This document shows, piece after piece, positions 15,986 through 64,000 of a stretch of DNA of 64,000 nt. Where the stretch lies: positions 2,379 to 66,378 of the forward strand of contig JBDREN010000049.1 of assembly GCA_043819795.1 (NCBI GenBank), given 5' to 3'. Made by a program: the position numbers and the translations under genes. This stretch comes from Elusimicrobiota bacterium. Its GTDB lineage: Bacteria; Elusimicrobiota; Elusimicrobia; UBA1565. The notes beneath the pieces are model-generated. The model had not been told where the DNA came from. It ran no database searches and worked only from the letters and a program-made list of their open reading frames with translations. Numbering within the stretch: position 1 is the first letter of the stretch; each line of letters begins with the position of its first letter.

Positions 15986-16280
15986 AATCGGATCGCCGGG
16001 GATCGTGTCGCCTGCGCGCTCCCCGCGGTCCGCGCCGCCGCGCAGTGGTCAAGACAGGACCCGTTCCCGGCTCGTTGGAATTCCCGCTGCGCGGCAGACC
16101 CATGGGATTTCCGGGCGCGTCAATCGCCCCGGAACCGCCAATGGAAAGCGCGGCACCGCGGGACGATGAGACAGGTGCGGCTTGATACGATGACGCAGGA
16201 GATGCCGGCTCCCGCGCTTCGCAAGGGGTTTTTCAGCACCCTGCTGGCGGGCCGGAGAATTCGGGCGCCGGCCGTGCGGC

Positions 16281-17759: not shown

Positions 17760-17888
17760 CCGGATGGCGAAGGCTGCGGGCTCATGGTCTTCTCCAGGAA
17801 AAGTATATCTCTTTTCATCGAGGCGGCCGCACGCATGGCCGGGCCCGGGAACTTCCGCCCGGCGGCCGCGTAGTGAAGGACGGGGAGG

Positions 17889-49369: not shown

Positions 49370-49388
49370 CCCGGGGGGAGAGAACGCG

Positions 49389-50762
49389 GTGAGCACCCAA
49401 AGGAAATACAGCTACTTCGTCGAGCCCAAGGCGCTCGAGGTCGCGGAGCGTCCGCGAAAATTCCTCATGGCATTCGCGGCCGTGCTGAAGAACGCCAGCT
49501 ACGGGCTGGCGCTCGATACGTACGCGCGCCTGAGCACCAAATGCGGGCGTTGCGTGGCCTCCTGTCAGCTCTATCAGACCACGCGCGAGGAGCGGGACAT
49601 CCCCTGCCATCGCTCCGAGCTCCTGCTGCGGGTGTACCGGCGGTACTTCACGCATTCGGGCCGCCTCAAGGCCAAGATATTCAGCGGTTTCGAGTTGACG
49701 GACGCCTACTTGGACGAGATGGGCGAGGCCTACTACCGCTGCACCGCCTGCCGGCGGTGCAAGGCCACCTGCCCCATGGGCATCGACCACGCCCTGGTCA
49801 CTCATCTGGCCCGGTGGCTGCTCTCGGAGATCGACGTCATCCCCAAGGCGCTGTTGGTGGCGACGCGCGAGCAGCTCGAGGGCGTCGGCAATACCTCGGC
49901 CATCCCGGTCCCCGCGCTCAAGGACACCTGCGAGTTTCTGGAGGAGGAGCTCAAGGAGATCACCGGCGTGGACATCAAGTTCCCCATGGATGTCGAGGGC
50001 GCCGAGTACGTCTTCTTCCCGGCGGTCTCGGACTATCTGCTCGAGGCGGACACCCTCATGGGCAACGCGGCCGTCATGCACGTCACCGGCGGGTCGTGGA
50101 CCATCGGCACGGGCAACTACGACGGCATCAACTACGGCCTGTTCTACAGCGATCGCATGATGGAGCGGATCGTCAACAACGTCGTCAAGGAGGTCCGCCG
50201 CCTCAAGGGGAGGAAGGTCCTCGTCGGCGAATGCGGCCACGCCACTCGCAGCGCCTGGTACGTGCCGGCCTTCGGCGGCCCGGACGCGCCGCCGGTGGTC
50301 AATTGCTTGCAGTACGCCCACCGGATGCTCGAGGCCGGGAAGCTCCCCCTGAAGAAAGAGCTTATCAAGGAGCGGGTCACCTATCACGATCCGTGCAATA
50401 TCGCCAGGAGCGGGCGGATCACCGAGGAGCCTCGGGAGCTCCTTAAGGCTATCTGCGGGGACTTCGTGGAGATGACGCCGAACCGCGCGGAGAACTACTG
50501 CTGCGGCGGAGGCGGCGGCACGGTCTCCATCGACGAGATCCGGGCTTTCCGCACGGGTCTCATGGGAAAGCGCAAGGCGGATCAGATCCGCGCGACCGGC
50601 GCCAAATACGTCGTGTCGCCCTGCGCCAACTGCAAGAAACAGCTCCGCGAGGTCTGCGAGGACAACGGCCTCAACGAGGTCGAGGTCGTGGGCCTGCACG
50701 ACCTGCTGCTGAAGGCGATCGACTTCGGGGTCCCCGAGAAGAAAGGAGAGGACGATGGGTGA
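49389..50762 (+). CDS. HdrD/DsrK/HmcF-like iron-sulfur protein (2x 4Fe-4S + CCG domain), cytoplasmic
   Basis: CGRCVASCQLY and CTACRRCKATCPMGIDH ferredoxin motifs. CCG-domain signatures YHDPCNIARS and NYCCGGGGG. Confidence 0.85.
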   Translation: MSTQRKYSYFVEPKALEVAERPRKFLMAFAAVLKNASYGLALDTYARLSTKCGRCVASCQLYQTTREERDIPCHRSELLLRVYRRYFTHSGRLKAKIFSGFELTDAYLDEMGEAYYRCTACRRCKATCPMGIDHALVTHLARWLLSEIDVIPKALLVATREQLEGVGNTSAIPVPALKDTCEFLEEELKEITGVDIKFPMDVEGAEYVFFPAVSDYLLEADTLMGNAAVMHVTGGSWTIGTGNYDGINYGLFYSDRMMERIVNNVVKEVRRLKGRKVLVGECGHATRSAWYVPAFGGPDAPPVVNCLQYAHRMLEAGKLPLKKELIKERVTYHDPCNIARSGRITEEPRELLKAICGDFVEMTPNRAENYCCGGGGGTVSIDEIRAFRTGLMGKRKADQIRATGAKYVVSPCANCKKQLREVCEDNGLNEVEVVGLHDLLLKAIDFGVPEKKGEDDG

Positions 50763-51465
50763 GCTAGAGATCTGGACCGAGTGGGCGCGCGGGCCGCTGT
50801 TCAGGGCCGCGCTGGCGTTCATGATCCTGGGCCTTCTGCGTCACGCGGCGTTGACCATATGGGAGCTGGCGGGGATCATGTACCGCGCCGGCGACAAGGC
50901 CTTCCCGTGGAGGCGGGCATTCTCCGCCACGCTAAAATGGCTTTTCCCGGTGGGGCAGATCAAGAACCGTGTCCTCTACAGCCTGACCACGCTCGGCTTC
51001 CATGCCGCCGTCATCATCGTTCCCGTTTTTCTCGCGGGCCACGTCGCGCTCTGGGAGCGGGGCACGGGCCTGTGCTGGCCGACCATCCCCAACGGCGTGG
51101 CGGACGTGCTGACGATCATGGCCGTGCTCGCGGCGGCCTTGCTCGTGGCGGAGCGCGCGGCCGCGCGGGACTCCCGGGCGCTGAGCCGCTTCCAGGACTA
51201 CGCCTTGCCCCTGCTCGTGGCCGCGCCCTTCGCGACCGGCTTCCTGGTCATGCATCCGGCTTTAAACCCGTTCGGCCATGAAGCGACGATTCTGGTCCAC
51301 GTGTTGAGCGCGGATATTCTGTTCATCCTCATCCCGCTGACCAAGCTGAGCCACATGATCCTGCTCCCGGGCACGCAGATCATCTCCGAGCTGTCCTGGC
51401 ATTTCCCGCCGGACGCCGGCAGGAAAGTGGGCGTCGATCTCGGGAAGGAGAAGCAACCCATATGA
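50755..51465 (+). CDS. NarI/DsrM/HmcE-like membrane cytochrome b subunit
   Basis: 8-nt overlap with the upstream gene. About 5 TM helices with conserved His (LLRHAAL, GFHAAVIIVP, GHVALWE, HVLSADILF, KLSHMILLP). Confidence 0.7.
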   Translation: MGELEIWTEWARGPLFRAALAFMILGLLRHAALTIWELAGIMYRAGDKAFPWRRAFSATLKWLFPVGQIKNRVLYSLTTLGFHAAVIIVPVFLAGHVALWERGTGLCWPTIPNGVADVLTIMAVLAAALLVAERAAARDSRALSRFQDYALPLLVAAPFATGFLVMHPALNPFGHEATILVHVLSADILFILIPLTKLSHMILLPGTQIISELSWHFPPDAGRKVGVDLGKEKQPI

Positions 51466-52595
51466 AGAAGCCCGTCGCCATCCTTACGGACACGACGCTC
51501 TGCACCGGCTGCGAGGAATGCGTCGCGGCGTGCAAGAAGGAGAACGGCCTGGGCGAGGATCGCCGGTGGCGCTGGCAAAGCTCCGTGAGCGAGCTTTCCG
51601 CGTCGCGCTTCACCGCAATCATCCGTCGGCCCGGCAACCGCTACGTCCGCCAGCAGTGCCGGCACTGCGTGGACCCGGCGTGCGTGAGCGCCTGCATCGT
51701 GGGCGCGCTGCGGAAGACGGAAGAAGGCGCGGTGGTCTACGACCAGGATAAGTGCATCGGCTGCCGTTACTGCATGCTGGCCTGCCCCTACGGGATCCCG
51801 CGCTACGATTGGGAGAAGCCGATCCCGTACATCAGGAAGTGCACGCTCTGCTATGACAGGCTTGAGGAGGGAAAGGCCCCCGCCTGCGTGGAGGCCTGCC
51901 CCGAGAAGGCGACGATATTCGGCTCCCGCTCCGATATGCTGGCCGAGGCCCATCGGCGCCTGAAACGGCATCCCGGGAAGTACGTCCAGAAGGTCTACGG
52001 GGAACGCGAGGTGGGGGGGACGTCGGTCCTCTACATCTCGGACATACCCCTTGATTTCCTCGGCTGGCAGACCGATCCCGGCGAGCGGCCGCTGCCGGAC
52101 CTCACGTGGGCCGCCCAAAGGAAGATCCCGGCCGCGGCTCTGGGGGTGTTCGGGCTCATGGGCGGCACCTACTGGGTCATCGGCCGGAGGATGCAGGCCG
52201 CGGCGCGGGCGGGCCTGAAAGACGCGCCCCGGGAAGGGGACGCCCCGTCCGTGGGGCACGGGCATCCGGAGCAGGGAGGGGCCCTCTCCGGCCTGAAGAC
52301 GGCCCTGTGGATGCCTCTCGGCGTGGTGGCGGCCGTGACCATCGTGCGTTTCGCGCGGAATCTGGACGCGGCCGCGAGCCTCGGGGACGGAGCCCTCTGG
52401 ACCCTGTGGCTCGCCCTCGGCGTGGCGGGAGGCACCGGTCTCGGGGCGGGGATCCATTGGCTCGCCGCCCGCCGCAAGAAGGCGCCGGAGGAGGACGCGG
52501 AGCCCGAGGAAGGAACTCCCACCCCGCCCGTCCAGGCGTCGAAGACTTCCGTTCCCAAGCAGATCGCGGGCGACGGCGGCCCGAAGGAGCGATAG
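51462..52595 (+). CDS. Four-cluster 4Fe-4S ferredoxin subunit (HybA/HmcB/DsrO/NrfC-like) with C-terminal TM helices and no signal peptide
   Basis: ATGA overlap. CTGCEECVAAC, CRHCVDPACVSAC, CIGCRYCMLACP, CTLCYDR..CVEACP. The first Cys is residue 14 (MKKPVAILTDTTLC). Three hydrophobic segments lie after residue ~215. Confidence 0.85.
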   Translation: MKKPVAILTDTTLCTGCEECVAACKKENGLGEDRRWRWQSSVSELSASRFTAIIRRPGNRYVRQQCRHCVDPACVSACIVGALRKTEEGAVVYDQDKCIGCRYCMLACPYGIPRYDWEKPIPYIRKCTLCYDRLEEGKAPACVEACPEKATIFGSRSDMLAEAHRRLKRHPGKYVQKVYGEREVGGTSVLYISDIPLDFLGWQTDPGERPLPDLTWAAQRKIPAAALGVFGLMGGTYWVIGRRMQAAARAGLKDAPREGDAPSVGHGHPEQGGALSGLKTALWMPLGVVAAVTIVRFARNLDAAASLGDGALWTLWLALGVAGGTGLGAGIHWLAARRKKAPEEDAEPEEGTPTPPVQASKTSVPKQIAGDGGPKER

Positions 52596-52599
52596 GGCG

Positions 52600-54561
52600 A
52601 TGATGCCTCTGAGAAGAATCAAGAGCCTGCTCTGGTTCGTCCTGGGCGCGGGCATGGTGACCATCGCCGCGCGGCTGCTCACCGGGCTCGGCGCGGTCAC
52701 CAACCTGTCCCACAACGTTTCCTGGGGCCTGTGGAACGCGGTCAAGATCAGCATCGTGCCCCTCTCGGCCGGAGGGTTCGTTTTGGCTGCGATCGTCTAC
52801 GTCTTCCATATGGAGAGGTTCCGTCCCGTGCTCCGTTTGGCCATCCTTACGGGGTTTTTGGGCTACTCGACCTTCGCCACGATGCTCATGTTCGATATCG
52901 GGGTGCCCTACCGGATATGGCATCCCATGGTCTACTGGCAGCACCATTCCGTGCTCTTCGAAGTGGCGTGGTGCGTGATGCTGTATCTGACCGTGCTGGC
53001 CCTCGAGTTCTTGCCCAACGTGCTGGAGCATCCTCTGCTGAAGCACCCCCTGCTCCAGAAGGGATACAAGCTCCTGAAGAGCGCGACCGTACCCCTGGTG
53101 ACCGCGGGGATCGTGCTGTCCACGCTGCACCAGTCGTCGTTGGGCTCGCTGTTTTTGATCGTCCCCCACCGTCTCGATCCCTTATGGTACAGCCCGCTGA
53201 TACACGCGCTCTTCCTGGTCTCCGCCGTCGGGATGGGGCTTCTGGTGATCGCCGTGGAGGCGGTCCTGATCGAGCGTCTCTACGGCGTCAAGGCGCCGCT
53301 GGACGTCCTCGCCCCTTTGGCCCGCGCGGGCGCGGTGGTGATGGCCCTCTTCTTGGCCGTCAGGCTGGCCGACCAGGTCGCTCGCGGGGTGCTCCCGGGT
53401 GCTCTGAGCACATCTCCGATGGCGGCGGCATTCGTCCTTGAGACTCTGATCGCCTCGATCGTGCCGCTGCTGCTTCTGCGCAGGAGCGTCCGCGAGAGCC
53501 GCGGGGGCCTGTTCGCCTGCTCTCTTTCCGCGGTGCTGGGAGTCGTCTGGTACAGGTCGAACGTCGCCTTGCTGGCCATCGACTGGGGCGAGGCGGCCTA
53601 TTTCCCGGCGTGGACCGAGTTCGCCCTGTGCTTCGGCATACTGGCCGGGTCGGGCTTGGTGTTCTTCTTGCTGCTGGAGAACCTGGACATTTATTACGGG
53701 CCGGCCGCATCCGGCCGTGACCGCGAGCCGCAGGTGCCGGGGTTGGCGTTCGAGGCTTGGCTGGCGGACGCGAGGATCACCGCGGCCAGGCGCTATTCCC
53801 TGTTCATCGTGGCGGGCGCGGCGGCGGCCGTCTTGTTTCTCCCCGAGGGCACGGTGTTCGGAGCCAGGCCCGCGGACACGCCGGCGGCGCAGGCCCGGCG
53901 GGTCCGGGGCTTGTCGGTCCGGACCGGCGGCGGACGCGTCAGCACGCTGCGCCTCGGCGAGAGGCCGGTCCCCGCTAAGGGCCGAGTGAAGCGCCTGCCG
54001 CTTTACCTGATTGACGGCGACCGCGATGAGGACGCGGTCCTCTTCGATCACGCGGGCCATGTCAAGCGGGCGGGCGGCGAGAAGCGCTGCGGGGTGTGCC
54101 ATCACCTGAACATGCCGCTCGACGAGAACACCTCCTGCCATGAATGTCATCGCGACATGTACGAGCCCGCCTCCGTGTTCAGCCACGCATCGCATGTGCG
54201 CGAACTCGGGGGGAACGCGGGCTGCGTCAAGTGCCATGAGGATCCTCTCGTGGTGAAGGACCGCCGGACGGCCGTCGCTTGCGGGGAATGCCACTCCGAT
54301 TCGGCGGCAAAGGGCTCCTTCGTCGAGGCGCCGGGGCCGAGGTGGGGGGCCGCGCCGGGCTACGCGGACGCGATGCACGGCCTCTGCGAGAGTTGTCATA
54401 AGAAGAAGGCGAAAGAAGAGCCGGGCCGTTATCCCGCGGCGCTGGGGCGTTGCGCCGCCTGCCACGATACGGACCGCCCCATGGATATCCGTCGGATGGC
54501 GCCGCGAAGTGATAGAATGCGGGCCATGCGCGCCGAGGAACGCGGGCTCTCGGGCGGCTGA
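52600..54561 (+). CDS. NrfD/DsrP/HmcC-like quinone-interacting membrane subunit fused to a C-terminal hexahaem cytochrome c domain
   Basis: NrfD hallmark GLGAVTNLSHNVSWGLWNAVKISIV plus multiple TM helices, then an extra TM (RRYSLFIVAGAAAAVLFL). Six CxxCH motifs lie between 54088 and 54465 (CGVCH, CHECH, CVKCH, CGECH, CESCH, CAACH). Confidence 0.85.
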   Translation: MMPLRRIKSLLWFVLGAGMVTIAARLLTGLGAVTNLSHNVSWGLWNAVKISIVPLSAGGFVLAAIVYVFHMERFRPVLRLAILTGFLGYSTFATMLMFDIGVPYRIWHPMVYWQHHSVLFEVAWCVMLYLTVLALEFLPNVLEHPLLKHPLLQKGYKLLKSATVPLVTAGIVLSTLHQSSLGSLFLIVPHRLDPLWYSPLIHALFLVSAVGMGLLVIAVEAVLIERLYGVKAPLDVLAPLARAGAVVMALFLAVRLADQVARGVLPGALSTSPMAAAFVLETLIASIVPLLLLRRSVRESRGGLFACSLSAVLGVVWYRSNVALLAIDWGEAAYFPAWTEFALCFGILAGSGLVFFLLLENLDIYYGPAASGRDREPQVPGLAFEAWLADARITAARRYSLFIVAGAAAAVLFLPEGTVFGARPADTPAAQARRVRGLSVRTGGGRVSTLRLGERPVPAKGRVKRLPLYLIDGDRDEDAVLFDHAGHVKRAGGEKRCGVCHHLNMPLDENTSCHECHRDMYEPASVFSHASHVRELGGNAGCVKCHEDPLVVKDRRTAVACGECHSDSAAKGSFVEAPGPRWGAAPGYADAMHGLCESCHKKKAKEEPGRYPAALGRCAACHDTDRPMDIRRMAPRSDRMRAMRAEERGLSGG

Positions 54562-54565
54562 AACC

Positions 54566-55681
54566 ATGGCCCCCAAAGAGATAGAAAGCTGGCTTCGATC
54601 GAGCCTCTTTAACGAGGTCCCGGTGAGCATCTGCGTGATCGACCGGGGTTTCCGGATCATCGAGGCGAACCGGAGGTTCAGGGAGGAATACGGCCCCTGG
54701 AAGGACCGGGCGTGCCACGAGGTCTGCAAGGGTCTGGAGGAGCCCTGCGAGCGTTGCGGCGCGGTCAAGACCTTCTCGGACGGGCGCGTGCGCAACCGGG
54801 AGGAGACGGGAGCGGGCGGGAAGCACTACCTGGTGCACATGGTCCCCATCACCACCGACGGCGGGGATATCTCCTACGTCATCGAGACGTTCACGGATAT
54901 CACGCAGGTGAAGCAGCTGGAGGGCGAGAAGCGCGAAGCCGAGCGTCTGGCCGCCGTCGGCGAGACCGTGGCCGGCATCGCCCACGGCATGAAGAACGTG
55001 CTTACCGGGCTCGAAGGCGGCGTCTATGCCGTCAATACGGGCATCCAGCATGGCGACGACGAGAGGATCACCGAAGGCTGGGCCATGCTCGAGGAGAATA
55101 TCGCGCGCATCTCGGAGTTTGTCAAGGAGTTCCTGGCTTTCTCCAAGGGGCGCATCGCGCGGGTGGCCTTCGTGGACCCCAACGCCCCGGCGCGGGCGGT
55201 CTTTGAGCTCTTCCGGGAGAAGGCCGCGCAGGCGGGCATCGAGCTGAAGGCGGACCTGCAAGAGGGGATTCCTCCCGCGCCCCTGGACGAGCAGGGGATC
55301 CACGCCTGCCTGGCCAACCTCGTATCGAACGCCCTGGACGCCTGCTCCATGGGCGAGCAGCGGCGCGCGTGCGTGGTGACGATTCGCTCCCGGGAGCGCA
55401 GCGGGACGCTAGTGTACGAGGTTGCGGACAACGGCCGCGGGATGGACTACGAGATCAGTAGGAAAGTGTTTTCGAGGTTCTTCAGCACGAAGGGCTCGGA
55501 CCGGGGCACGGGTCTGGGGCTGCTCACCACTAAGAAGACCATCCACCAGCACGGCGGCCGGGTCTCGTTCAGCTCCGAGGAGAGCAGGGGCTCGGTGTTC
55601 CGCATCGAGCTTCCCCGGGAAAGACTGCCCAAGCCGGGCGGGAAGCCCGCCCAACGACAGGCCGCGGAAGGAGACGCCTGA
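54566..55681 (+). CDS. Cytoplasmic PAS sensor histidine kinase
   Basis: ATG 54566 (MAPKEIESWL..). PAS with a four-Cys cluster, H-box LAAVGETVAGIAHGMKNVL, N/G boxes LVSNALDA, DNGRGM, GTGLGL. Confidence 0.85.
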   Translation: MAPKEIESWLRSSLFNEVPVSICVIDRGFRIIEANRRFREEYGPWKDRACHEVCKGLEEPCERCGAVKTFSDGRVRNREETGAGGKHYLVHMVPITTDGGDISYVIETFTDITQVKQLEGEKREAERLAAVGETVAGIAHGMKNVLTGLEGGVYAVNTGIQHGDDERITEGWAMLEENIARISEFVKEFLAFSKGRIARVAFVDPNAPARAVFELFREKAAQAGIELKADLQEGIPPAPLDEQGIHACLANLVSNALDACSMGEQRRACVVTIRSRERSGTLVYEVADNGRGMDYEISRKVFSRFFSTKGSDRGTGLGLLTTKKTIHQHGGRVSFSSEESRGSVFRIELPRERLPKPGGKPAQRQAAEGDA

Positions 55682-56229
55682 TGGACAAAGAGAACGCCAA
55701 AGGACGCGCCGAGGATAAGACCGTACTCGTGGTCGATGACGAGCCGAACGTGCGCCGCCACCTGGCCCACATCCTAGAGGACGCCGGCTTCAAGGTCCTT
55801 ACGGCCTCCGATGGGGATGAGGCCCTGAAGACCATCCGGGAGCGGCGCCCGGACATCATCTCGCTCGACCTGGTCATGCCGCGCAAGAGCGGGCGCCGGC
55901 TGCTCTACGAGCTGAAGAAGGATAAGGAGCTCTCCCGCATCCCGGTGGTCATCGTCACCGCGCACGCCCAGGACGAGCTGGGCCAGAGCGACATGGAAGC
56001 CATCAGGGAGAGCATGATCATATCGGGCCCGGGCTTCTATCTGGAGAAGCCGGTTAGGCCCATGGACTACGTGCGCTGCATCCAGGAAGCCCTGGGCATC
56101 GAAGTGGCGGATCAAGCCGCGGACAAAGTCAGCCTCAAGGACGAGCTGAAGCGGCAGATGCAGGGGGCGGAGCCGCACGCGCTGCGCCGCGCCCTCGAGG
56201 CGTTGAGAAAGAAAGGCCCGCCGCGCTAG
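55681..56229 (+). CDS. Response regulator, receiver domain with short C-terminal extension (no recognised output domain)
   Basis: TGATG overlap with the kinase gene. VLVVDDEPNVR..DIISLDLVMPRKSG..VVIVTAH..LEKP. Confidence 0.85.
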   Translation: MDKENAKGRAEDKTVLVVDDEPNVRRHLAHILEDAGFKVLTASDGDEALKTIRERRPDIISLDLVMPRKSGRRLLYELKKDKELSRIPVVIVTAHAQDELGQSDMEAIRESMIISGPGFYLEKPVRPMDYVRCIQEALGIEVADQAADKVSLKDELKRQMQGAEPHALRRALEALRKKGPPR

Positions 56230-56708: not shown

Positions 56709-57752
56709 ATGCTGTACAAGGTGATCACGAAGGCCGAGTTTCGGAAGTTCGTCGACGGCCTGATCCAGGACAACCAGACTATAGGCCCCAAGCGGGTCGC
56801 CACGGACGCGAAAGGCAAGCCCGTCTACCAGTTTGTCGAGGTCCGCTCCTTCGACGAGTTGGACCTCGACTACACGATCACCTACTCCTCGGTGAAGAAT
56901 TTCTTCCACCCCTTCCGCGAGGAGCTGTCTCGTTTCAAGCTGAAAGATGACGATTGGGAGCAGGAGATCGAATACCGCGTCAATCCGAGGGTCATCATCG
57001 GCGTGCGGCCGTGCGACATCAACGCCTTGGCGATCCTGGACAAGGTGTTCTTGAGCGGGAGATTCCCCTCGCCGTACTACATCGCCCGGCGCCGGAACAC
57101 CTTCCTGATCGGAATGGACCATCTGCCCCTGGATGACTGCTTCTGCGAGTCCCTGAACCGGCACGCCCCGCGCGAGGGGTTCAACCTCTACTGCTCGGAC
57201 ATCGGGGACAGATACTATCTCTCGATCCTTTCCTCAAAGGCCTTCAGCTTCCTCAAGAACGTGAGGACGAGCGAGCCCTCCAAGGCGGACAACAAAAGAT
57301 ACATCGAGAGAAGAAAGCTCATCAAACGGAGCTTCAAGACCAAGGTGGAGGTCTCGGGCCTGCCGAGCTTCCTGGACATCGAGTTCAAGTCCCCGATATG
57401 GGATAAATGGGGGGACAAGTGCCTGAACTGCGGGACATGCGCCATGGTCTGCCCCACGTGCTACTGCTACGGGGTGGAGCAGTCCGTGGACGTGGACCTG
57501 AAGACCGCCCGCAAGGAGCGCATGCTGTACTCCTGCAACGTCGTGGATTTCGCGGAGGTGGCCGGAGGGCACAACTTCAGGCCGAAGAAGGCGGACAGGC
57601 TGAAGTACCGGTTCTATCACCATTACAGGGGTTTCGAGGAGAACGCCGACGAGCAGATCTGCGTTGGCTGCAACCGGTGCGGCAGGGCCTGCCTGGCGGG
57701 GATCAACCCGAAGGACGTGATCAACGACTTGAGGCTGGAGACCGGAGAATGA
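56709..57752 (+). CDS. [NiFe] hydrogenase group 3b-type beta subunit (AsrA/HydB-like Fe-S protein)
   Basis: [37 protein letters not shown]. First gene of the beta-gamma-delta-alpha order known from sulfhydrogenases. Confidence 0.8.
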
Positions 57753-58663
57753 AGGCGGGATTCAAAATACCCAGGCAGGACATCAATCTCGAGCCGTTCA
57801 TGACGGCGCCTCCCCAGTTCAACCGCAAGACCATCGTCATGCGCACGGACAAGGTCTACAAGTGCGAGCTCATCAACATCGTCGAGCTGACCTCCATGGA
57901 GAAGCTCTTCCATCTCAAGATCATCGACCCCCGCGAGAGGAAGCTGTTCTCCTTCCGGCCGGGACAGTTCGTGATGGTCCAGGTGCCCGGCTCCGGGGAG
58001 GTCCCGGTCTCCATATCGAGCTCGAGCAACAACCGGGAGTTCCTGGAGCTGTGCGTCCGCAGGGCGGGGCGCACCACCGGCATGCTGCACCGGGCCCGGA
58101 TCGGCGCGAAGGTGGGGATCCGCGGGCCCTTCGGCTCGTCTTTCCCCATGGAGGAGATGGCTGGCCACAACGTCCTGCTGATCGCCGGAGGGCTCGGCCT
58201 GGCCCCCCTGCGCGCCCCCATCTGCTGGGTCAACGAGCGCCGGGACCAGTACGGCGACGTCCACATCCTCTACGGCGCCAAAGAGCCTTCCCAGATGCTC
58301 TTCACGTACGAATTCAAGGAATGGGAACGGGTGAACCACATCAATCTGCTGACCATCGTCGAGAAGGCGGACAAGGCCTGGAAGGGCGGGACGGGCCTCA
58401 TCACCGAGCTCTTCAGGGATTTCTCCATCAAGCCGCTCGACACCTACGCGATCGTGTGCGGGCCGCCCGTCATGTTCAAGTTCGTGTGCGGGCATCTGGA
58501 CTCCATCGGGGTTCCCATGAACCGCATGTTCGTCTCCCTGGAGCGGCGGATGCACTGCGGCATGGGCAAGTGCTGCCGGTGCATGGTGGGCTCGACGTTC
58601 ACCTGCGTGGAAGGCCCCGTGTTCGACTACTGGAGCGTCATGAATTTGAAGGAGGCGATTTGA
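57749..58663 (+). CDS. [NiFe] hydrogenase group 3b-type gamma subunit (FAD/NAD(P)-binding, 2Fe-2S; AsrB/HydG-like)
   Basis: ATGA overlap (57749-57752). [36 protein letters not shown]-terminal [10 protein letters not shown] cluster. Confidence 0.85.
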
Positions 58664-59415
58664 GATACCTCGGCATCGAGCTCAAGAAGCCCAGGATCGC
58701 CGTCTTCGACTTCACCTGCTGCGAGGGCTGCGAGCTGCAGCTGGCGAACAAGGAGGAGACCCTGGTCGATTTCCTCTCCCTTGTCGAGGTCGTGAACTTC
58801 CGGGAGGTGTCCTCGGACAAGAGCGAGGACTACGAGATCGCCTTCGTGGAGGGGGCGGTCTCGAGGGAGGATGAGGTCGCTCGCCTGAAGAAGATCAGGG
58901 TGAACGCGAAGGTCCTCGTGGCTTTCGGCGCCTGCGCCTGCTTCGGCGGCGTGAACCAGATCAAGAACAAGTTCCCGCTCAAGTCGGTCGTCCGAGAGGT
59001 GTACGGCAGGCACCGCGTGGCCACGTCCAAGGTGCGGAAGATCAGCGAAGTGGTCAAAGTGGATCTCGAGATCCCGGGCTGTCCGGTCTCCAAGAAAGAG
59101 GTGGAAAGGATCGTCGTCGCTCTGGTCACGGGCGCGGGCATCAGCCTGCCGAAGTACCCCGTCTGCCTCGAGTGCAAGGCGAAGTGCAACGTCTGCGTCC
59201 TGGACCTCGGGCAGATCTGCCTGGGTCCGATCACGCGCGCGGGCTGCGATTCGCCCTGCCCATCCGGGGGGACCGCGTGCCTGGGCTGCAGGGGGCCGGC
59301 GCCCGAGGCCAATTACGAGTCGTTCCTGCGGATATTGAAAGACCGGGGCTTCAAGGCCCCGGAGATCAAGGAGAGGCTCGAGTTCTACGGCGCCTTCAAC
59401 GGGGTCATGAGATGA
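58660..59415 (+). CDS. [NiFe] hydrogenase small (delta) subunit, group 3 type
   Basis: TTG 58660 overlaps the gamma stop, with GAAGGAGG upstream. [28 protein letters not shown], and distal cluster cysteines [12 protein letters not shown]. Confidence 0.85.
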
Positions 59416-60686
59416 AGCGCGCCAGGGAGATCACCGTACGCCATGTGACCCGGGTCGAGGGCCACGGCGACATCCATATCAAGGTGAAAGACGGCCGGCT
59501 CGTGGATGCGCGGTGGGCCGTGGTGGAGACCCCGCGTTTCTTCGAGGCCATGCTCAAGGGCATGTCCCATGATCTGGCGCCCATACTGACGGCCAGGATC
59601 TGCGGCATCTGCTCCATAGGCCACTGCCTGGCGAGCCTGAGGGCGGTGGAGAGGGCCATGGACGTCAAGGTCCCGGAGACCGCGCGGCTGTTGCGCCTGC
59701 TCGCCAAGCACGGCGAGACCCTTCAGAGCCACGCGCTCCACGTGTTCTTCCTGTCCGCGCCCGATCTCTTCAAGGTGGGGAGCGTCATCCCCCTGATCAA
59801 GTCCCATCCCGAGGTCGTCGGCATCGCGGCCAGGCTCAAGAAGCTGGGAAACGACGCTTGCGACCTGATCGCGGGGCGGACCACGCACCCGGTGAGCCTG
59901 GTGGTGGGCGGGCTCAGCAGGCTGCCCACGGACAAGCAGATCGAGGAGCTGAGGGGCGCGTTCCTTGCGAGGCTGCCGGACATGCGCGCGGCCGTCGACC
60001 TCTTCAAGACGCTTCCCATGCCGGACTTCCAGCGGGAGACGGAGTTCGTGTCATTGAAGGGCCAGGGGGACTATCCCTGGATCGGGGGGGATCTCGTGTC
60101 GTCCGACGGCGTCCGCAGGCCGGAGGACGGCTACCTGGCCATGACGAACGAATACAAAGTGGAGTTCAGCACCTCGAAGTTCGCCAAGCTGAGTAGGGAG
60201 TCCTTCGCGGTCGGCGCCCTGGCGAGGTTCAACAACAATCACAAGCATCTGCGGCCGGAGGCGAAGGGAGCCGCCAAGGCGCTGGGCTTGAGTCCCCTGA
60301 GCCACAACCCTTTCATGAACAACGTGGCCCAGCTCGTGGAATGCTATCACGTGATGCTGGAGTCCATCGAGTTGCTGGACGGGCTTCTGGGCCGCCGGGG
60401 AAAGACCGCGTCCCGTCCTTATAAAGTGAAGGCCGGCCGGGGCGTCGCCGCCGTGGAGGTGCCCCGGGGCATCCTCTACCACGAATACGAGCTCGACAAG
60501 AAGGGCAAGGTCGTCAGGGCGAACTGCGTCATCCCCACCACGCAGAACCACGCCAACATCCACCACGATCTCCGGGCGCTCGCCGCGCGGCTGGTGCGGG
60601 AAGGCAAAAGCGACGGGGAGATCACTTTGCTGAGCGAGATGCTGGTCCGGTCCTACGACCCCTGCATCTCCTGCTCCGTCCACTAG
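59412..60686 (+). CDS. [NiFe] hydrogenase large (alpha) subunit, group 3b type, ending at the C-terminal His
   Basis: ATGA overlap. VTRVEGHG, L1 motif [11 protein letters not shown]-terminal DPCISCSVH followed directly by TAG (60684-60686). Confidence 0.9.
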
Positions 60687-61591
60687 AGCAGATCTTTCGC
60701 CTCGGGGAAGCTCGTCTGGGTGCCGGACGAGCGCACGCTGAGGGCGGCCACGCGGTTGGCCCGCCGTACCGCTTCGGGCAGCGCCGTGCCGGAGGCCAGG
60801 AAGAAGGCCAGGCTGCCCACGAACGCGTCCCCGGCTCCGGTCGTGTCGACGGCCTTCACGGGCTCGACGGGCACGTGCTCGGCGCCGCCGCCGGCGACTA
60901 GCAGGCTGCCCCGCTCTCCCAGGGTCAGGATCACCGTCCCCGCTCCGCGCTCCACGAGGACGCGCGCCGCGGCCTCGGCCTCCTTTGGGGTCCCCACCGG
61001 CATGCCGGTCAGGAGCTCGGTCTCGCTCTCGTTGGGGCAGAAGACGTCGCTCAGCCGGTAGAGCTCCTCCGGCAGGTCCGGACGGGCCGGCGCCGGATTG
61101 AAGATGGTCCTTACTCCTTCCTGGCGGGCGATGCGCAGGGCGGCCAAGGAGACCTCCAGGGGGATCTCCAGCTGGCAGACCAGTATCCGGGCGGCGGCGA
61201 TCGACCGGCGCCCGGCCTCGATCTCACCCTCGGTCAGCAGATCGTTGGCTCCGGTCACGATGATGATGGAGTTGCGCCCTTCCGGGTCCACGGCGATCGG
61301 GGCCACTCCCGAGAACGCCCGGTCGGTGAGATGCACATGCCGGGTGTCCACTCCCAGGGACTCGAAGTTCTTCAAGGTGTCCTTGCCGAAGACGTCGTCT
61401 CCCAGCTTGGCCACCATGGCGACGTCGCCTCCCAGTTTGGCGGCCATGACCGCCTGGTTGGCGCCCTTGCCCCCGAATCCCATGTGGAAGCGGGTCCCAT
61501 GCAGAGTCTCGCCCACGCGGGGCAGCCTCGGCACGTAACTGATCAGATCGAGATTGCATGCCCCCACGACGCAGATCTTCGGTCTATCCAT
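60683..61591 (-). CDS. rbsK: Ribokinase
   Basis: GGKGANQAV, NESE, DTTGAGDAFVGSL. GGAGGA lies 6 nt before ATG 61591. Confidence 0.9.
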   Translation of the reverse strand: MDRPKICVVGACNLDLISYVPRLPRVGETLHGTRFHMGFGGKGANQAVMAAKLGGDVAMVAKLGDDVFGKDTLKNFESLGVDTRHVHLTDRAFSGVAPIAVDPEGRNSIIIVTGANDLLTEGEIEAGRRSIAAARILVCQLEIPLEVSLAALRIARQEGVRTIFNPAPARPDLPEELYRLSDVFCPNESETELLTGMPVGTPKEAEAAARVLVERGAGTVILTLGERGSLLVAGGGAEHVPVEPVKAVDTTGAGDAFVGSLAFFLASGTALPEAVRRANRVAALSVRSSGTQTSFPEAKDLL

Positions 61592-61637
61592 GTGGCTTCC
61601 TCCTGAGCGTGCGGCCGGCCAGCTCGTAGATGGTATG

Positions 61638-61681
61638 AAAAAAAGCGGGCGGCGGACCCGGGCCCGAGTCCCGCCGGAAGC
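61638..61681 (-). terminator. Terminator-like GC hairpin + U7 in the 5' leader of rbsK (minus strand)
   Basis: Minus-strand RNA reads CUUCCGGCGGGACUCGGGCCCGGGUCCGCCGCCCGC-UUUUUUU. The A7 run on the plus strand is 61638-61644. It lies 47 nt upstream of the rbsK start codon. Confidence 0.4.
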
Positions 61682-61706
61682 ATCCTACATGTGTTCGGTC
61701 AGGTTA

Positions 61707-61735
61707 TTGATTTGGGAGTACAGTTAAGCTATACT
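61707..61735 (+). promoter_or_regulatory. Putative sigma-70 promoter of the MerR-family gene
   Basis: TTGATT (61707-61712), 17-nt spacer, TATACT (61730-61735) in an AT-rich island. The palindrome CTATATAG overlaps the -10 region. Confidence 0.4.
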
Positions 61736-61756
61736 ATATAGAGTAGCTTTGTAATA

Positions 61757-62272
61757 ATGGTAGACCCTGCAAAGGCTTTTACCGAACCTGTGATTGCGAT
61801 CGGGACGCTGGCTGAGAAGAGCGGCCTTTCCGTATCCGCGATCCGGAAGTACGAGGCGGAGGGCCTGCTCATTCCCTTTCGGACGCCTTCCGGCCATCGC
61901 CTGTTTTCTCACGAGGACATGGACCGGGTGAAGATCATCCGCCACATGATCCAGGAGCTGGGCCTGAACATCGAGGGCATCAGGAGGCTGCAGGCGCTGC
62001 TTCCGTGCTGGGAGCTGGTCCGGTGCTCGGAGGATAAGCGAAGCGAGTGCCCGGCCTACAAAGACAACTCCAAGCCGTGCTGGATGGTCCGGGGAGGGGA
62101 CTGCAGCGCGCGCGGGAACGAATGCCGCAGCTGCGCGGTGTACCGGTTCGGCTCGCAGTGCACCGAGGACATCAAGCGCGTGGTGCACAACCGGGCGGCT
62201 CCGGAGGAGCTGAGCGAGGAAGTGCGGAAGGCTTTGAACAGGCTGGAACAACCTGAGAAGGGGGATAGATGA
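61757..62272 (+). CDS. MerR family transcriptional regulator with C-terminal cysteine-rich (2x PCW) domain
   Basis: MerR HTH IGTLAEKSGLSVSAIRKYEAEGLL..RTPSGHRLFS, then LLPCWELVRCSEDKRSECPAYKDNSKPCWMVRGGDCSARGNECRSCAVYRFGSQC. Confidence 0.85.
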   Translation: MVDPAKAFTEPVIAIGTLAEKSGLSVSAIRKYEAEGLLIPFRTPSGHRLFSHEDMDRVKIIRHMIQELGLNIEGIRRLQALLPCWELVRCSEDKRSECPAYKDNSKPCWMVRGGDCSARGNECRSCAVYRFGSQCTEDIKRVVHNRAAPEELSEEVRKALNRLEQPEKGDR

Positions 62273-63156
62273 TAGTCATACTCACCTATGTCGCGTTGAT
62301 CGTGTTCGGGGCGGGATTCCTTTATAGAGGCTTAAGCATCGCGATGATGCCGGTGCATCTGCGATGGGAGCTCGCGCCCGTGCCGCACGAAAAAGGAAGA
62401 GCCCATTACGGGGGGTCTTACCTGGAGGAGTTCGAGTGGTGGACCAAGCCCAGGGAGAAGTCGCTTGTGGGCGAAGCCTTCTACATGTTCCAGGAGATCG
62501 TCTTCCTCAAGGGAGTCTGGGAGCACAACCGCTCTTTGTGGGTGTTCTCCTTCCCGTTCCATTTCGGTTTGTACCTGCTCGTCGGCATGGGGGGGTGCCT
62601 CATCCTGGCGTCTTTCGGCGTCCCATTCTTCGGCCCGGCGGCTTTGGCCCTCGGAGGAGCGGGCTACGTGCTGGGCAGCGTCGGGACCTTGGGGCTCCTT
62701 GCCAGGCGCGCCTTCGACCCCAAGCTCAAGCCCTTCACCAGCATGGCGTCGTATTTCAACCTCCTGTTCCTGGCGGCGGTGTTCGTGACCGGCTGCGTCG
62801 CGTTGTTCTCGGGGGGCTTTCTGGCGGACATGACCTCCTACCTCAAGGCCGTCGCCTTCGCCGAGGCGGGGCCGGCGCTGGGCGCCGCGATCTCGACGCA
62901 CATCGCCGTGGGGATGCTCTTCCTCGTCTACCTGCCGTTCACCTACATGATGCATTTCGTGGCCAAGTACTTCACCTACCACGAAGTGCGGTGGAACGGC
63001 GAGCCCATGTCGGGCAATGACGCCATGCAGGAAGAGGTCAAGAAGCTGCTCGGGCAGACCGTGACGTGGTCCGCTCCACACATCGGCGCCGACGGCAAGA
63101 AGAACTGGGTCGATATCGCCACCGCGGGGACAGCCAAGGAGAAAAAAGATGCCTAA
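62269..63156 (+). CDS. DsrM/HmeC/NarI-like membrane cytochrome b subunit
   Basis: ATGA overlap with the MerR gene. MPVHLRWELAPVPHEKG, FQEIVFLKGVWEHNRSLWVFSFPFHFGLYLL, YMMHFVAKYFTYH. Confidence 0.75.
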   Translation: MIVILTYVALIVFGAGFLYRGLSIAMMPVHLRWELAPVPHEKGRAHYGGSYLEEFEWWTKPREKSLVGEAFYMFQEIVFLKGVWEHNRSLWVFSFPFHFGLYLLVGMGGCLILASFGVPFFGPAALALGGAGYVLGSVGTLGLLARRAFDPKLKPFTSMASYFNLLFLAAVFVTGCVALFSGGFLADMTSYLKAVAFAEAGPALGAAISTHIAVGMLFLVYLPFTYMMHFVAKYFTYHEVRWNGEPMSGNDAMQEEVKKLLGQTVTWSAPHIGADGKKNWVDIATAGTAKEKKDA

Positions 63157-64000
63157 GCCCCTGAGAGTCGAGGATTTCGGGAAGAACGAAGGGCAGCAGC
63201 TGACCAGCGTCGACATGAGCGACCTGGTCCCCCTGCCGCCCCCTTACGACAAGATCGAGGAGCAGCCGGTATGGAAGGAGATCAAGCCGGAGGCGAAGGA
63301 GAAGATGGCCTGCAACCTCGACGGGGTGGTCGCCTGCAGCCTGCCCAAGCCCAAGGACGCCGCCGAGGAGCAGGAGATCGTCGACAAGTTCGTCTCGGGC
63401 CTTAGGAAAATCCTGACGAAAGAGAACAATTGGACCTTCCTCCAGCCGCTTATGCTGTCTTTGGAGTACTGCGCCAAGTGCCAGACCTGCAACGACGCCT
63501 GCCCGGTCTACGAATTCAGCGGCAAGAACGACCTCTACCGGCCCACTTACCGTTCCGAGGTGTGGCGGCGCCTGGTCAACAAGTACGTCAAGTCCGGCCC
63601 CAAGTGGCTGGCGAAGTTCAAGCACGGGGATATCGACCTTAACTGGACGACGGTCTCGAGGCTCTACGAGCTTGCCTACCGCTGCACCTTGTGCCGCCGC
63701 TGCGCGCAGGCCTGCCCCATGGGAGTCGACAACGGGCTCATCACCCACGAGCTGCGCAAGATCTTCAGCCAGGAGCTGGGCTGGGCCCCGAAGGAGCTCC
63801 ATGAGAAGGGCACCGTGCTGCAGCTCGATGTCGGCTCCTCGACGGGCATGAGCCCCCTGGTGGTCAAGGACAACATCGAGTTCGTGGACGAGGACTTCTC
63901 CGAGGAGTCCGGCCTGGACGCCAAGACTCCGTGGGACAAGGAGGGCGCGGAGGTCCTGCTCATCCATAACGCGGGCGAGATCATGACCTGGCCGGAGAAC
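63149..64000 (+). CDS. DsrK/HdrD/HmeD-like iron-sulfur protein, 3' end beyond window
   Basis: Not in the ORF track because no stop is reached. I translated it by hand: ATG 63149 after AAGGAG, open to nt 64000. EYCAKCQTCNDACPVY and YRCTLCRRCAQACPMGVDN. Confidence 0.8.
   Translation, partial: MPKPLRVEDFGKNEGQQLTSVDMSDLVPLPPPYDKIEEQPVWKEIKPEAKEKMACNLDGVVACSLPKPKDAAEEQEIVDKFVSGLRKILTKENNWTFLQPLMLSLEYCAKCQTCNDACPVYEFSGKNDLYRPTYRSEVWRRLVNKYVKSGPKWLAKFKHGDIDLNWTTVSRLYELAYRCTLCRRCAQACPMGVDNGLITHELRKIFSQELGWAPKELHEKGTVLQLDVGSSTGMSPLVVKDNIEFVDEDFSEESGLDAKTPWDKEGAEVLLIHNAGEIMTWPEN

Follow-up and report, generated by a model that had tools for sequence, protein, structure and literature searches.

Transcription factors that report the redox state by means of Cys residues are well known and include SoxR as well as regulators of the Rrf2 and WhiB types. 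MerR, CueR and SoxR activate transcription by untwisting the DNA at promoters with over-long spacers of 19-20 bp, in which the operator dyad is centred, and in the ars and cad operons the repressor gene is the first gene of its own operon. Sulfate reducers and archaea have the membrane modules DsrMK, HmeCD, TmcBC and HmcEF. In Desulfovibrio vulgaris, the Cys-containing regulator TmcR (DVU0269), which belongs to the Rrf2 family, is tied to an operon of the HdrD/cytochrome b type (bioRxiv 10.1101/2024.09.27.615472).

Here, we describe a locus at the end of a 64-kb window (i.e. the whole stretch of DNA analysed; G+C content 66.7%), in which a MerR-type regulator with a Cys-rich domain, MerR-CW, is encoded directly upstream of a NarI/HdrD-type membrane module. 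Literature searches on MerR together with DsrMK, HmeCD or HdrD, and on DVU0259-0262, returned nothing on this system; similarly, no paper on the two-CW domain was found in a literature search.

Results

merR-CW overlaps the genes for a NarI/HdrD-type module

The gene merR-CW (61757..62272, plus strand) encodes a regulator of 171 aa with a winged helix-turn-helix (HTH) head (residues ~11-80), a two-CW-like Cys domain (residues 83-136) and C-terminal helices (residues 127-164). Its stop codon overlaps by 4 nt (ATGA, 62269-62272) with the start of the narI-like gene (62269..63156, plus strand), which is preceded by a GGGGGA Shine-Dalgarno sequence and encodes an integral membrane protein of 295 aa with five hydrophobic segments and conserved His residues. 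The hdrD(dsrK)-like gene (63149..>64000, plus strand), which has an AAGGAG Shine-Dalgarno sequence, in turn overlaps the narI-like gene by 8 nt (ATGCCTAA, 63149-63156) and is open at the end of the window, giving the N-terminal 284 aa of its product. The ATGA overlap between the regulator gene and a cytochrome b gene, as described in the sequence-only reading, is therefore real, and matches to Pfam and NCBIfam models together with the two overlaps confirm that the downstream genes are of the NarI and the HdrD/DsrK types and tightly coupled. A relative with 99% identity (P0001) is present in an Elusimicrobiota MAG.

The narI-like product contains Nitrate_red_gam (Pfam PF02665; 33.5 bits, cutoff 22.9); by contrast, it scored 15.3 bits with the DsrM model (NF038037) against a cutoff of 300, and its scores with HmcE (23.2) and TmcC (21.2) were also far below the cutoffs. 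Of the His residues that are candidates for binding two haems b, H98 and H229 are conserved in all of 41 orthologues, H30, H238 and H271 in 40, H86 in 37 and H211 in 22. The protein is presumed to be a dihaem cytochrome b and quinone-interacting subunit.

The hdrD-like fragment contains two CxxCxxCxxxCP motifs, CAKCQTCNDACP and CTLCRRCAQACP, corresponding to a 4Fe-4S dicluster domain (Pfam Fer4_8, 51.2 bits), and its top model is DsrK (NCBIfam NF045796) with 138.9 bits on the partial protein. The CCG part of this gene lies beyond the window end and is inferred from orthologues, which at full length comprise 533-536 aa and have a C-terminal CCG domain with the motifs NYCCGGG...CAPCSNC. Taken with these orthologues, the protein has the two ferredoxin motifs and the CCG domain of the HdrD/DsrK type. 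One full-length orthologue, from locus L001, scored 318.7 bits with DsrK (cutoff 400), 193 with TmcB and 184 with HmcF. Because neither subunit reaches its equivalog cutoff and the operon lacks dsr neighbours, we rejected an assignment as bona fide DsrMK.

The regulator directly precedes the membrane pair in 44 loci

The regulator gene directly precedes the NarI/HdrD pair in 44 non-redundant loci, which come from MAGs and one single-cell genome of Elusimicrobiota, Planctomycetota, Gemmatimonadota and other taxa. The gap between the regulator and the NarI gene does not exceed 21 nt in 39 of the 44 loci, and in 31 of 39 the NarI and HdrD genes overlap. Since spurious ORFs in the G+C-rich DNA made an all-against-all clustering of the raw ORFs noisy, we kept only those neighbour clusters that Pfam or NCBIfam confirmed. 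According to gene calls, the operon ends after hdrD in five relatives, and no further conserved substrate gene was detected in the operon in the relatives' loci.

MerR-CW paralogues precede two other modules: one with a Macro protein, a TmcC/HmcE-like protein and a 454-aa HdrD-like protein, and one with a PD40-repeat protein, a 215-aa membrane protein and a 439-aa HdrD-like protein. Thus, across three module types, an HdrD-type gene adjoins every MerR-CW gene for which there is enough flanking sequence. Moreover, in Elusimicrobiota, Gemmatimonadota and Thermoguttaceae the cassette is flanked by a regulator-kinase-regulator set that consists of a PAS histidine kinase and two DVU0259/DivK-like response regulators, and in some relatives receiver-fused HdrD-like proteins adjoin it.

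In the reciprocal test, which started from the NarI-like protein, HdrD followed NarI in 62 of 63 metagenome loci; among the 59 metagenome loci with at least 520 nt of upstream sequence, MerR-CW was upstream in ~10-14, and in 23 a C_GCAxxG_C_C protein took its place. Because the pair usually occurs without MerR-CW, the regulator is no intrinsic part of how the module functions. This test also led us to reject an obligate complex of regulator and module. The idea of a regulator co-translated with the module that it controls reduces to ordinary operon coupling.

MerR-CW has a short MerR-type head

A MerR-type HTH had been claimed from the sequence, and MerR_1 (Pfam PF13411) indeed matches residues 15-79 with 58.6 bits (cutoff 21.6). 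The standard dimerisation helix described along with it is, by contrast, absent from the AlphaFold model, in which the helix of residues 72-80 alone precedes P83-C84-W85; this model is a prediction with a pLDDT of 87 at residues 71-80 and 64 at residues 81-90. If the usual MerR coiled coil is missing, something else must make MerR-CW oligomerise. In a fold search, the nearest structural relatives of the model were GlnR, TnrA, CarH and RacA. The top family model was HspR (NCBIfam NF047375), with 53 bits against a cutoff of 105, and HspR was ahead of all other models in each of 22 MerR-CW family members, every time below cutoff. The equivalog models for MerR, CueR, ZntR, CadR and SoxR gave 34-41 bits with cutoffs of 117-168, e.g. 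40.1 bits for SoxR (TIGR01950; cutoff 116.9). As judged from these scores and the predicted fold, the head of MerR-CW is of the short MerR-superfamily type and GlnR/TnrA/HspR-like.

Kinship of the Cys region with the two-CW domain

The eight Cys residues of MerR-CW (C84, C90, C98, C108, C116, C123, C126 and C135) follow the pattern PCW-x4-C-x7-C-x9-C(W)-x7-C-x6-C-x2-C-x8-C. The spacing given in the sequence-only reading agrees with this in all gaps except one, i.e. C90 and C98 are separated by seven residues and not six. The region encoding the domain (62003..62164, plus strand; residues 83-136) thus contains eight conserved Cys residues and two P-C-W motifs.

Conservation of the Cys region in orthologues, on which that reading had made its proposal depend, was found: the gap pattern 5,7,9,7,6,2,8 is present in 79 of 107 homologues and 5,7,9,7,7,2,8 in 17 more. 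In an alignment of 65 sequences, P83, C84, W85, C90, P107, C108, W109, C116, C123 and C126 do not vary, and the conservation of C98 and C135 is 90% or higher. Across 22 homologues at 55-73% identity, seven Cys residues are invariant and C135 is at least 90% conserved. The near-fixed spacing of the eight Cys residues in the homologues places the pattern far beyond chance.

The two-CW model NF045718 matched MerR-CW with 14.3 bits (E 0.039), below its cutoff of 35, and weak matches were found in 21 of 22 relatives (best E 0.0092). A search with a profile of the MerR-CW domain recovered P0132 and P0133 at E ~1e-13; the bona fide two-CW proteins among those retrieved had NF045718 scores of 39 to 93 bits (90.8 for P0132, 93.4 for P0133 and 78.2 for P0192). 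A word-indexed search with a canonical two-CW domain gave only two matches. The contigs encoding the canonical two-CW proteins P0211 and P0130 did not extend far enough to reveal neighbouring genes, and cluster look-ups yielded almost no taxonomy. Moreover, seven Cys residues and both CW dipeptides of MerR-CW align by eye with bona fide two-CW proteins. The kinship with a two-CW domain, which the sequence-only reading had suggested with reserve, was therefore borne out by the recovery of bona fide NF045718 members, and we conclude from sequence comparison that the Cys region is a divergent, shortened relative of the NCBIfam two-CW domain. With the DVU0259-like response regulators flanking the cassette as an indirect hint, we speculate that a protein of the Desulfovibrio tmc locus may have been the source of NF045718.

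Domains of the two-CW type also occur in MCPsignal, GGDEF, HD_5 (HD-GYP), HisKA/HATPase, LysR and receiver-MerR architectures. In several chemoreceptors, GGDEF proteins and HD-GYP proteins, the domain is the sole recognisable candidate input module, often in tandem copies. The MerR-CW domain has a single CxxC pair and no classical Fe-S motif; a SoxR-like [2Fe-2S] site was rejected because the CIGCGCxxxxxC motif is absent. The pLDDT of the domain was 60-77 in the full-length AlphaFold model and 52 when modelled alone, and no solved relative was found either with a sequence profile in the PDB or by fold.

A conserved candidate operator overlaps the merR-CW promoter

A sigma-70-type promoter-like site (61707..61735, plus strand), consisting of a -35 hexamer TTGATT (61707-61712), a 17-bp spacer and a -10 hexamer TATACT (61730-61735), precedes merR-CW. 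It is the sole such site in 61400-62400, where shuffled sequences gave an expectation of 0.3, and lies in a stretch of ~32% G+C within the G+C-rich window. The inverted repeat GTACAG-TTAAG-CTATAC (61718..61734), whose right arm overlaps the -10 hexamer, is a candidate operator.

The family consensus of this operator is GTATAG-nTTTn-CTATAC, in which the 5-nt spacer is fixed; with this spacer, no fewer than 10 of the 12 positions are matched in 38 of 63 upstream regions, and the motif is conserved across phyla. A TTG-type hexamer is located at the position of a 17-bp spacer in 20 of these 38 loci. In the Gemmatimonadota loci, there is no obvious TTGAC -35 element, and the promoter geometry is therefore clear in only part of the family. 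A third half-site, GAGTAG (61741..61746, plus strand; consensus (G)TGTAG), follows the inverted repeat by 6-7 nt, and TGTAG is present at the fixed offset +7 in 31 of the 38 loci. Together with CTATAC, the third half-site forms a second palindrome, AAGCTATACTAT/ATAGAGTAGCTT (61726-61749; 83% complementary).

With up to one mismatch, GTRYAG-N5-CTRYAC has one match in the 64-kb window, i.e. the one at the merR-CW promoter. In 580 kb of related loci there are 37 operator matches, all upstream of a merR-CW start, compared with 2.65 expected from shuffles. Similarly, 367 kb of NarI/HdrD loci contain three matches, each ~87 nt before a merR-CW start, and in the same 367 kb the motif is absent at NarI/HdrD loci lacking MerR-CW. 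Phylogenetic footprinting alone thus points to MerR-CW as the presumed occupant of the operator. With regard to binding at unrelated promoters, which had been named as evidence against regulation of this operon, the conserved candidate operator sits at the promoter of the regulator itself.

Discussion

With moderate confidence, we propose that MerR-CW is an autoregulated repressor that carries a metal-thiolate or Fe-S redox sensor and controls a DsrMK-like operon. The proposal builds on the gene structure, domain homology, conservation and synteny, and on the position and specificity of the operator; from these we infer that MerR-CW is the protein at the operator and that it represses, as well as what kind of cofactor and signal it uses. 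MerR-CW would bind three GTATAG-type half-sites in the arrangement -> <- ->, which would span both the -35/-10 spacer and the -10 hexamer as well as the transcription start; the promoter, with its 17-bp spacer, is otherwise near-consensus. Bound in this way, it would repress its own operon, i.e. merR-CW, narI-like and hdrD(dsrK)-like. MerR-CW would be released by an altered state of the metal-thiolate centre in its CW domain, either an Fe-S cluster or a redox switch of the Zn-Cys kind, when the cell needs the membrane module, which may function as a menaquinol:(protein-)disulfide or sulfur-carrier oxidoreductase of the DsrMK/HmeCD/TmcBC type. Direct redox or Fe-S sensing by MerR-CW, as suggested in the sequence-only reading, is plausible.

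A spacer of 17 bp together with an operator dyad shifted onto the -10 box looks like repression and not like classical MerR activation. For a classical activator, which would bind between -35 and -10 and upon a signal untwist the DNA to activate a poor promoter, one can point to the left operator arm inside the spacer and to the MerR-type HTH, which the SoxR, CueR and MerR models match at E ~1e-10. However, the spacer is not of 19-20 bp, the third half-site lies over the start region, the AlphaFold model lacks the long antiparallel coiled coil on which the torsion mechanism depends, and the closest structures (GlnR, TnrA, CarH and RacA) and family model (HspR) lie elsewhere; we rejected this mechanism on the spacer length and hold it to be decidedly unlikely. 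In another reading, the CW domain is only a structural module for zinc binding or oligomerisation, the signal coming by some other route, e.g. from the flanking DivK-like response regulators and PAS kinase or from a small-molecule ligand. The presence of this regulator-kinase-regulator set around the cassette, the need for another oligomerisation part in a protein without the usual MerR coiled coil, and the single CxxC pair without a classical Fe-S motif would all be compatible with such a module. By contrast, the domain is the sole candidate input on several chemoreceptors, GGDEF proteins and HD-GYP proteins, often in tandem, so that a sensor fits better than a scaffold, and a purely structural role is rather unlikely.

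A further reading is a direct redox relay. The HdrD-like CCG subunit, fed from the quinone pool through the NarI-like subunit, could itself oxidise or reduce the CW cysteines or a cluster, and the operon would then be a device for signalling from the quinone pool to transcription rather than a regulated enzyme; we regard this as very unlikely. Such a relay would agree with the HdrD-type gene beside every sufficiently flanked MerR-CW gene in all three module types, with the operon holding no additional conserved substrate gene, and with the adjoining receiver-fused HdrD-like proteins, which show that these lineages employ CCG proteins for signalling. However, MerR-CW precedes just ~10-14 of the 59 NarI-like genes and the C_GCAxxG_C_C protein 23, and the module therefore works without the regulator; moreover, a repressor heading its own operon, as in ars and cad, accounts for the synteny without a relay. 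More broadly, the two-CW domain might be a widespread cytoplasmic input domain for redox or Fe-S sensing, present in anaerobes on chemoreceptors, c-di-GMP enzymes, kinases and regulators of the LysR and MerR types. In the MerR-CW family, it would be wired directly to HdrD-type CCG proteins, and the membrane module would pass on to the cysteines of the regulator the redox state of either the quinone pool or a sulfur carrier; we consider this decidedly unlikely.

The two-CW domain is represented by a database model, with no literature found, and the MerR-CW family makes it amenable to study, since the protein is small and soluble and both a candidate operator of 30 bp and the target operon are defined. 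Were the cofactor and the signal worked out in MerR-CW, chemoreceptors, GGDEF proteins, HD-GYP proteins and kinases with two-CW domains could be annotated. Moreover, knowing the switch would help to assign a role to the DsrMK-like pairs in uncultured Elusimicrobiota, Planctomycetota and Gemmatimonadota.

MerR-CW shares with NF045718 two-CW proteins the order of seven Cys residues and both C-W dipeptides (CW-x5-C-x7-C(PAY)-x7-9-CW-x6-C-...-CxxC-xVY); it differs from them in having a loop of 6-7 residues instead of ~15 from the fifth Cys to the CxxC pair, and in the extra eighth Cys (C135). Like GlnR, TnrA and HspR, it has a winged HTH head without a long coiled coil and is predicted to bind short inverted repeats at promoters. 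It differs in that it scores below the cutoffs for HspR (105) and TnrA (140), in the operator sequence, and in its C-terminus, which is a Cys domain and not a glutamine-synthetase-binding tail or a chaperone-responsive region. With SoxR, it has in common a MerR-type head followed by a C-terminal Cys cluster and, presumably, a redox input, but it lacks CIGCGCxxxxxC and, in the model, the coiled coil, and the promoter spacer is 17 bp instead of 19 bp. The membrane module resembles DsrMK, HmeCD, TmcBC and HmcEF in combining a NarI-type membrane subunit with a cytoplasmic HdrD-type subunit that has two ferredoxin-like motifs and CCG; it differs from DsrMK in that the operon contains no dsrJOP, dsrAB or dsrC. 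Finally, TmcR and the Rrf2 regulator of the hmc operon in D. vulgaris have an Rrf2 fold instead of a MerR fold and another cysteine motif, and are similar to MerR-CW as Cys-containing regulators linked with operons of the HdrD/cytochrome b type.

Gene organization and conservation of the merR-CW operon

Three ORFs on the + strand occupy all of 61757-64000, i.e. merR-CW (61757..62272; 171 aa; Pfam MerR_1 at residues 15-79), a NarI-like gene (62269..63156; 295 aa; Nitrate_red_gam) and an HdrD/DsrK-like gene (63149..>64000; truncated by the window end after 284 aa). As noted in the sequence-only reading, the merR-CW stop codon overlaps the next start codon (ATGA); the second junction overlaps by 8 nt. 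Good Shine-Dalgarno sequences were read for the NarI-like (GGGGGA) and HdrD-like (AAGGAG) genes, and none upstream of merR-CW. Moreover, the predicted transcription start lies only about 13-15 nt from the merR-CW ATG (61735-61759), and together these two features suggest that the merR-CW mRNA is nearly leaderless. Long ORFs are also present on the opposite strand (62332..63216 and 63038..63967); antisense ORFs are a usual by-product of G+C-rich DNA, and the window has 66.7% G+C. The + strand products have many homologues, and MerR-CW is 99% identical to the Elusimicrobiota MAG protein P0001 in a protein search, which makes an origin of the window in this phylum very probable.

The protein search with MerR-CW retrieved 595 homologues, the best 120 of which share 55-73% identity over near full length. 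In a locus scan using one genome per species, we obtained 56 loci, all from MAGs or single-cell genomes, in Elusimicrobiota, Planctomycetota, Gemmatimonadota, Riflebacteria, Ignavibacteria and a small number of other groups. The 44 non-redundant loci have the regulator followed by a NarI-like gene (38-67% identity) and a 533-536-aa HdrD-like gene (57-82%), and the regulator-NarI gap does not exceed 21 nt in 39 of the 44, with an overlapping NarI/HdrD junction in 31 of 39. Which genes lie downstream (dsrC, for example) had been asked earlier. Gene calls in five relatives place the operon end after hdrD, with variable genes beyond it that encode response regulators, a Fic protein, a membrane protein of YeiH type or a lactamase-fold protein.

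The cysteine-rich region of MerR-CW resembles a two-CW domain

MerR-CW contains eight Cys within residues 83-135. Conservation of this region in orthologues, on which the sequence-only reading depended, was extensive: the Cys spacing (5, 7, 9, 7, 6 or 7, 2, 8) is identical in 96 of 107 homologues. An alignment of 65 sequences shows no variation in either P-C-W motif or at C90, C116, C123 and C126, while C98 and C135 are each retained in at least 90%. MerR-CW scored 14.3 bits against NF045718 (two_CW_domain; cutoff 35), and 21 of 22 relatives matched equally weakly. A profile of the domain (65 positions), run against 1.84 billion representative proteins, matched 320 proteins at E ≤ 1e-3, including the NF045718 members P0133 (93.4 bits), P0132 (90.8), P0192 (78.2) and P0130 (38.9). 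Thus, the tentative two-CW assignment was correct in kind. Among the matches, the domain is partnered with MCP signalling, GGDEF, HD-GYP, HisKA/HATPase, LysR and receiver domains, frequently in tandem, and also stands alone in 60-100-aa proteins. Compared with the canonical form (CW-x5-C-x7-CPAY-x7-9-CW-x6-C-x~15-CxxC-xVY, seven Cys), the MerR-CW version has the long loop cut to 6-7 residues and C135 in addition. Sequence and fold searches found no related solved structure, the domain modelled by itself was unreliable (pLDDT 52), and no paper on the two-CW domain was found. In total, the sequence comparisons support that this region is a shortened two-CW domain, a divergent relative rather than a scoring member of NF045718.

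MerR-CW has a short MerR-type head

The top NCBIfam model for the MerR-CW head was HspR, at 53 bits well short of membership (cutoff 105). The MerR, CueR, ZntR, CadR and SoxR models gave 34-41 bits against cutoffs of 117-168, and MerR-CW accordingly failed the membership tests for SoxR and for the classical MerR activators. In the AlphaFold model (mean pLDDT 76.6; >90 at residues 11-70), a helix spans residues 72-80, P83-C84-W85 come after it and there is no long coiled coil of the classical MerR kind. The sequence and the model therefore indicate a MerR-type head of the short kind; from the earlier description of a standard HTH with a dimerisation helix, the MerR-type HTH stands and the long helix is not supported by the model.

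A candidate operator overlaps the merR-CW promoter

The 57 nt upstream of the merR-CW start codon have about 32% G+C and contain the sole promoter-like site in the region (TTGATT, 17 bp, TATACT). Alignment of 63 upstream regions gave the pattern CTTnA-N7-GTATAG-nTTTn-CTATAC-N7-TGTAG-nnTT, in which the CTATAC arm overlaps the -10 hexamer. The inverted repeat has a spacer fixed at 5 nt in 38 loci (at least 10 of 12 matches); among these, the third half-site has a fixed offset in 31 and a TTG-type hexamer is placed for a 17-bp spacer in 20. When no more than one mismatch was allowed, a search of 580 kb of related loci gave 37 copies of the repeat (2.65 expected from shuffling), all upstream of merR-CW starts; the 64-kb window has a single copy (61718-61734). 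Across 367 kb of loci retrieved with NarI, it was found three times, each about 87 nt 5' of a merR-CW start, and not in the loci lacking MerR-CW. Altogether, there is strong comparative evidence for assigning the candidate operator to MerR-CW and for autoregulation of the operon.

The operator-to-start-codon distance is 60-80 nt in Planctomycetota and Gemmatimonadota and 22-27 nt in close Elusimicrobiota relatives. A terminator-like G+C-rich hairpin with a T-run (61646-61660, - strand) lies upstream of the start of a pfkB-family (ribokinase-like) sugar kinase gene (60683-61591, - strand). No - strand gene ends there, the hairpin is part of an 18-nt G+C palindrome (61645-61674), and it may be a chance product.

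The membrane module is DsrMK-like in architecture

The NarI-like protein has five hydrophobic segments and a loop of strong conservation (HLRWELxPVPHE...YGGSYxEExxWWTKPR). Of its His residues, H98 and H229 occur in every one of 41 orthologues, H30, H238 and H271 in 40, H86 in 37 and H211 in only 22. It scores above the Pfam NarI cutoff and only 15-23 bits on DsrM, HmcE and TmcC. The HdrD-like protein has two ferredoxin-type 4Fe-4S motifs, CAKCQTCNDACP and CTLCRRCAQACP, and DsrK as its top NCBIfam model. Full-length orthologues have a CCG domain in addition and score 318.7 bits on DsrK (cutoff 400), 193 on TmcB and 184 on HmcF. Neither protein thus passes as DsrM or DsrK, and dsrAB, dsrC and dsrJOP are absent from the operon. 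These scores indicate a DsrMK-like architecture and not a DsrMK equivalog; the family resemblances proposed earlier hold.

A supposed first DsrMK-type module upstream (48011-56229) proved to be different. It comprises genes for a sigma-54 activator with a PAS domain (48011-49369), an HdrD-like CCG protein (49389-50762), a TmcC/HmcE-like membrane protein (50755-51465; sub-cutoff scores of 126 and 117 bits), an HmcB-like 4Fe-4S protein (51462-52595), a fusion of an NrfD-type membrane protein with a multihaem cytochrome c (52600-54561), a PAS histidine kinase (ORF 54509-55681, true start probably later) and a DVU0259/DivK-like response regulator (55681-56229). By its gene content the set is Tmc/Hmc-like, and it contains neither merR-CW nor the GTATAG operator. 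Between it and the merR-CW operon lies a four-gene NiFe hydrogenase of sulfhydrogenase (group 3-like) layout (56709-60686), with Fer4_22, FAD/NAD-binding (DHODB-type Fe-S domain), small (Oxidored_q6) and large subunits, the last ending in DPCISCSVH; the sugar kinase gene separates it from the operon. A hybrid sensor kinase of 1324 aa (41706-45680) has GAF, three PAS, HisKA, HATPase, two receiver and Hpt domains.

Genomic neighbourhood in relatives

The cassette neighbourhood varies between lineages. At the Elusimicrobiota locus L001 (4348-7925), the cassette is immediately preceded by the APS reductase genes aprB and aprA together with genes for a protein of 88 aa and a CxxCxxCC (PF03692) protein, with no qmo genes nearby; the NarI/HdrD pair might be an electron donor to AprBA in this lineage. 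At a second Elusimicrobiota locus, L063, the strand opposite the cassette encodes, a few kb downstream (15223-18504), a CxxCxxCC protein, an Ogr_Delta protein of 89 aa and an FAD_binding_2 protein of 622 aa, the length of the L001 AprA-like product; no AprB was seen. Gemmatimonadota neighbours include siroheme-synthesis genes, a YeiH-type protein and, in 12 loci (e.g. L057 176-823, L004 1125-1772), a 215-aa protein in which the TusE/DsrC fold (TIGR03342, 107 bits) is duplicated in tandem. Each repeat keeps its internal Cys; the penultimate C-terminal Cys, the defining feature of DsrC, is missing. Also in Gemmatimonadota, HdrD-like proteins (4Fe-4S motifs and CCG) are fused to a C-terminal receiver (L004 3394-5013, L005 3259-5013 and a further contig, 480-2258) and their genes adjoin those for a PAS kinase and single-domain response regulators as well as the merR-CW cassette, an unusual case of a CCG redox protein apparently under phosphorelay control.

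The module commonly occurs without the regulator

An HdrD-type gene adjoins merR-CW in every close family member with enough flanking sequence. This includes paralogues upstream of genes for a Macro-domain protein, a 225-242-aa TmcC/HmcE-like membrane protein and a 454-aa HdrD-like protein, or for a 413-aa protein (weak PD40 repeat match), a 215-aa membrane protein and a 439-aa HdrD-like protein. Reciprocally, metagenome contigs were queried with motifs of the NarI-like protein. Among the best 80 loci (42-71% identity), 63 extend far enough downstream, and in 62 of these HdrD comes after NarI; of the 59 that extend far enough upstream, only about 10-14 have MerR-CW there. Hence, MerR-CW always occurs with an HdrD-type module and the module commonly occurs without MerR-CW, favouring an ordinary regulated enzyme and disfavouring an obligate regulator-module sensor complex. 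In 23 loci among L067-L146, a C_GCAxxG_C_C protein (PF09719, 209 aa, 56.5 bits) is encoded instead of MerR-CW, e.g. at L093 (2135-2764) on the same strand about 136 nt upstream of the NarI/HdrD pair; this 'putative redox-active protein' may act as a partner for the module or as its substrate.

Discussion

We consider it reasonably likely that MerR-CW acts at the three-half-site operator as a repressor of its own operon, and that a change at a metal-thiolate centre in the CW domain would release it. Autoregulation is the firmest element and very probable. Repression is the likelier mode of action, because the promoter is well spaced and the operator lies over its -10 hexamer and start site; the same arrangement makes activation by DNA untwisting, as in classical MerR proteins, improbable despite the MerR-type head. 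The chance that sensing takes place in the CW domain, by Fe-S or Zn-Cys chemistry, is a little better than even. It is unlikely that the Cys domain is purely structural and that signalling passes through neighbouring two-component proteins, as might be imagined from the DivK-like response regulators and PAS kinase near the cassette in many lineages. More doubtful still is a direct redox relay in which the HdrD-like subunit acts on MerR-CW. For the favoured self-repression with release through the CW domain, the nature of the target module suggests thiol/disulfide state, sulfur species or oxygen/redox stress as candidate signals.

The searchable literature yielded no description of the MerR-CW family, its operator or CW-domain function, and MerR-CW offers a simple system for characterising two-CW, an unstudied presumed sensor domain. 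Among known systems, MerR-CW is like SoxR in idea and like GlnR, TnrA and HspR in its DNA-binding head, its operon is like ArsR-type operons in having the putative repressor gene first, and MerR-CW has functional analogues in the Rrf2-type regulators of the tmc and hmc operons in Desulfovibrio.
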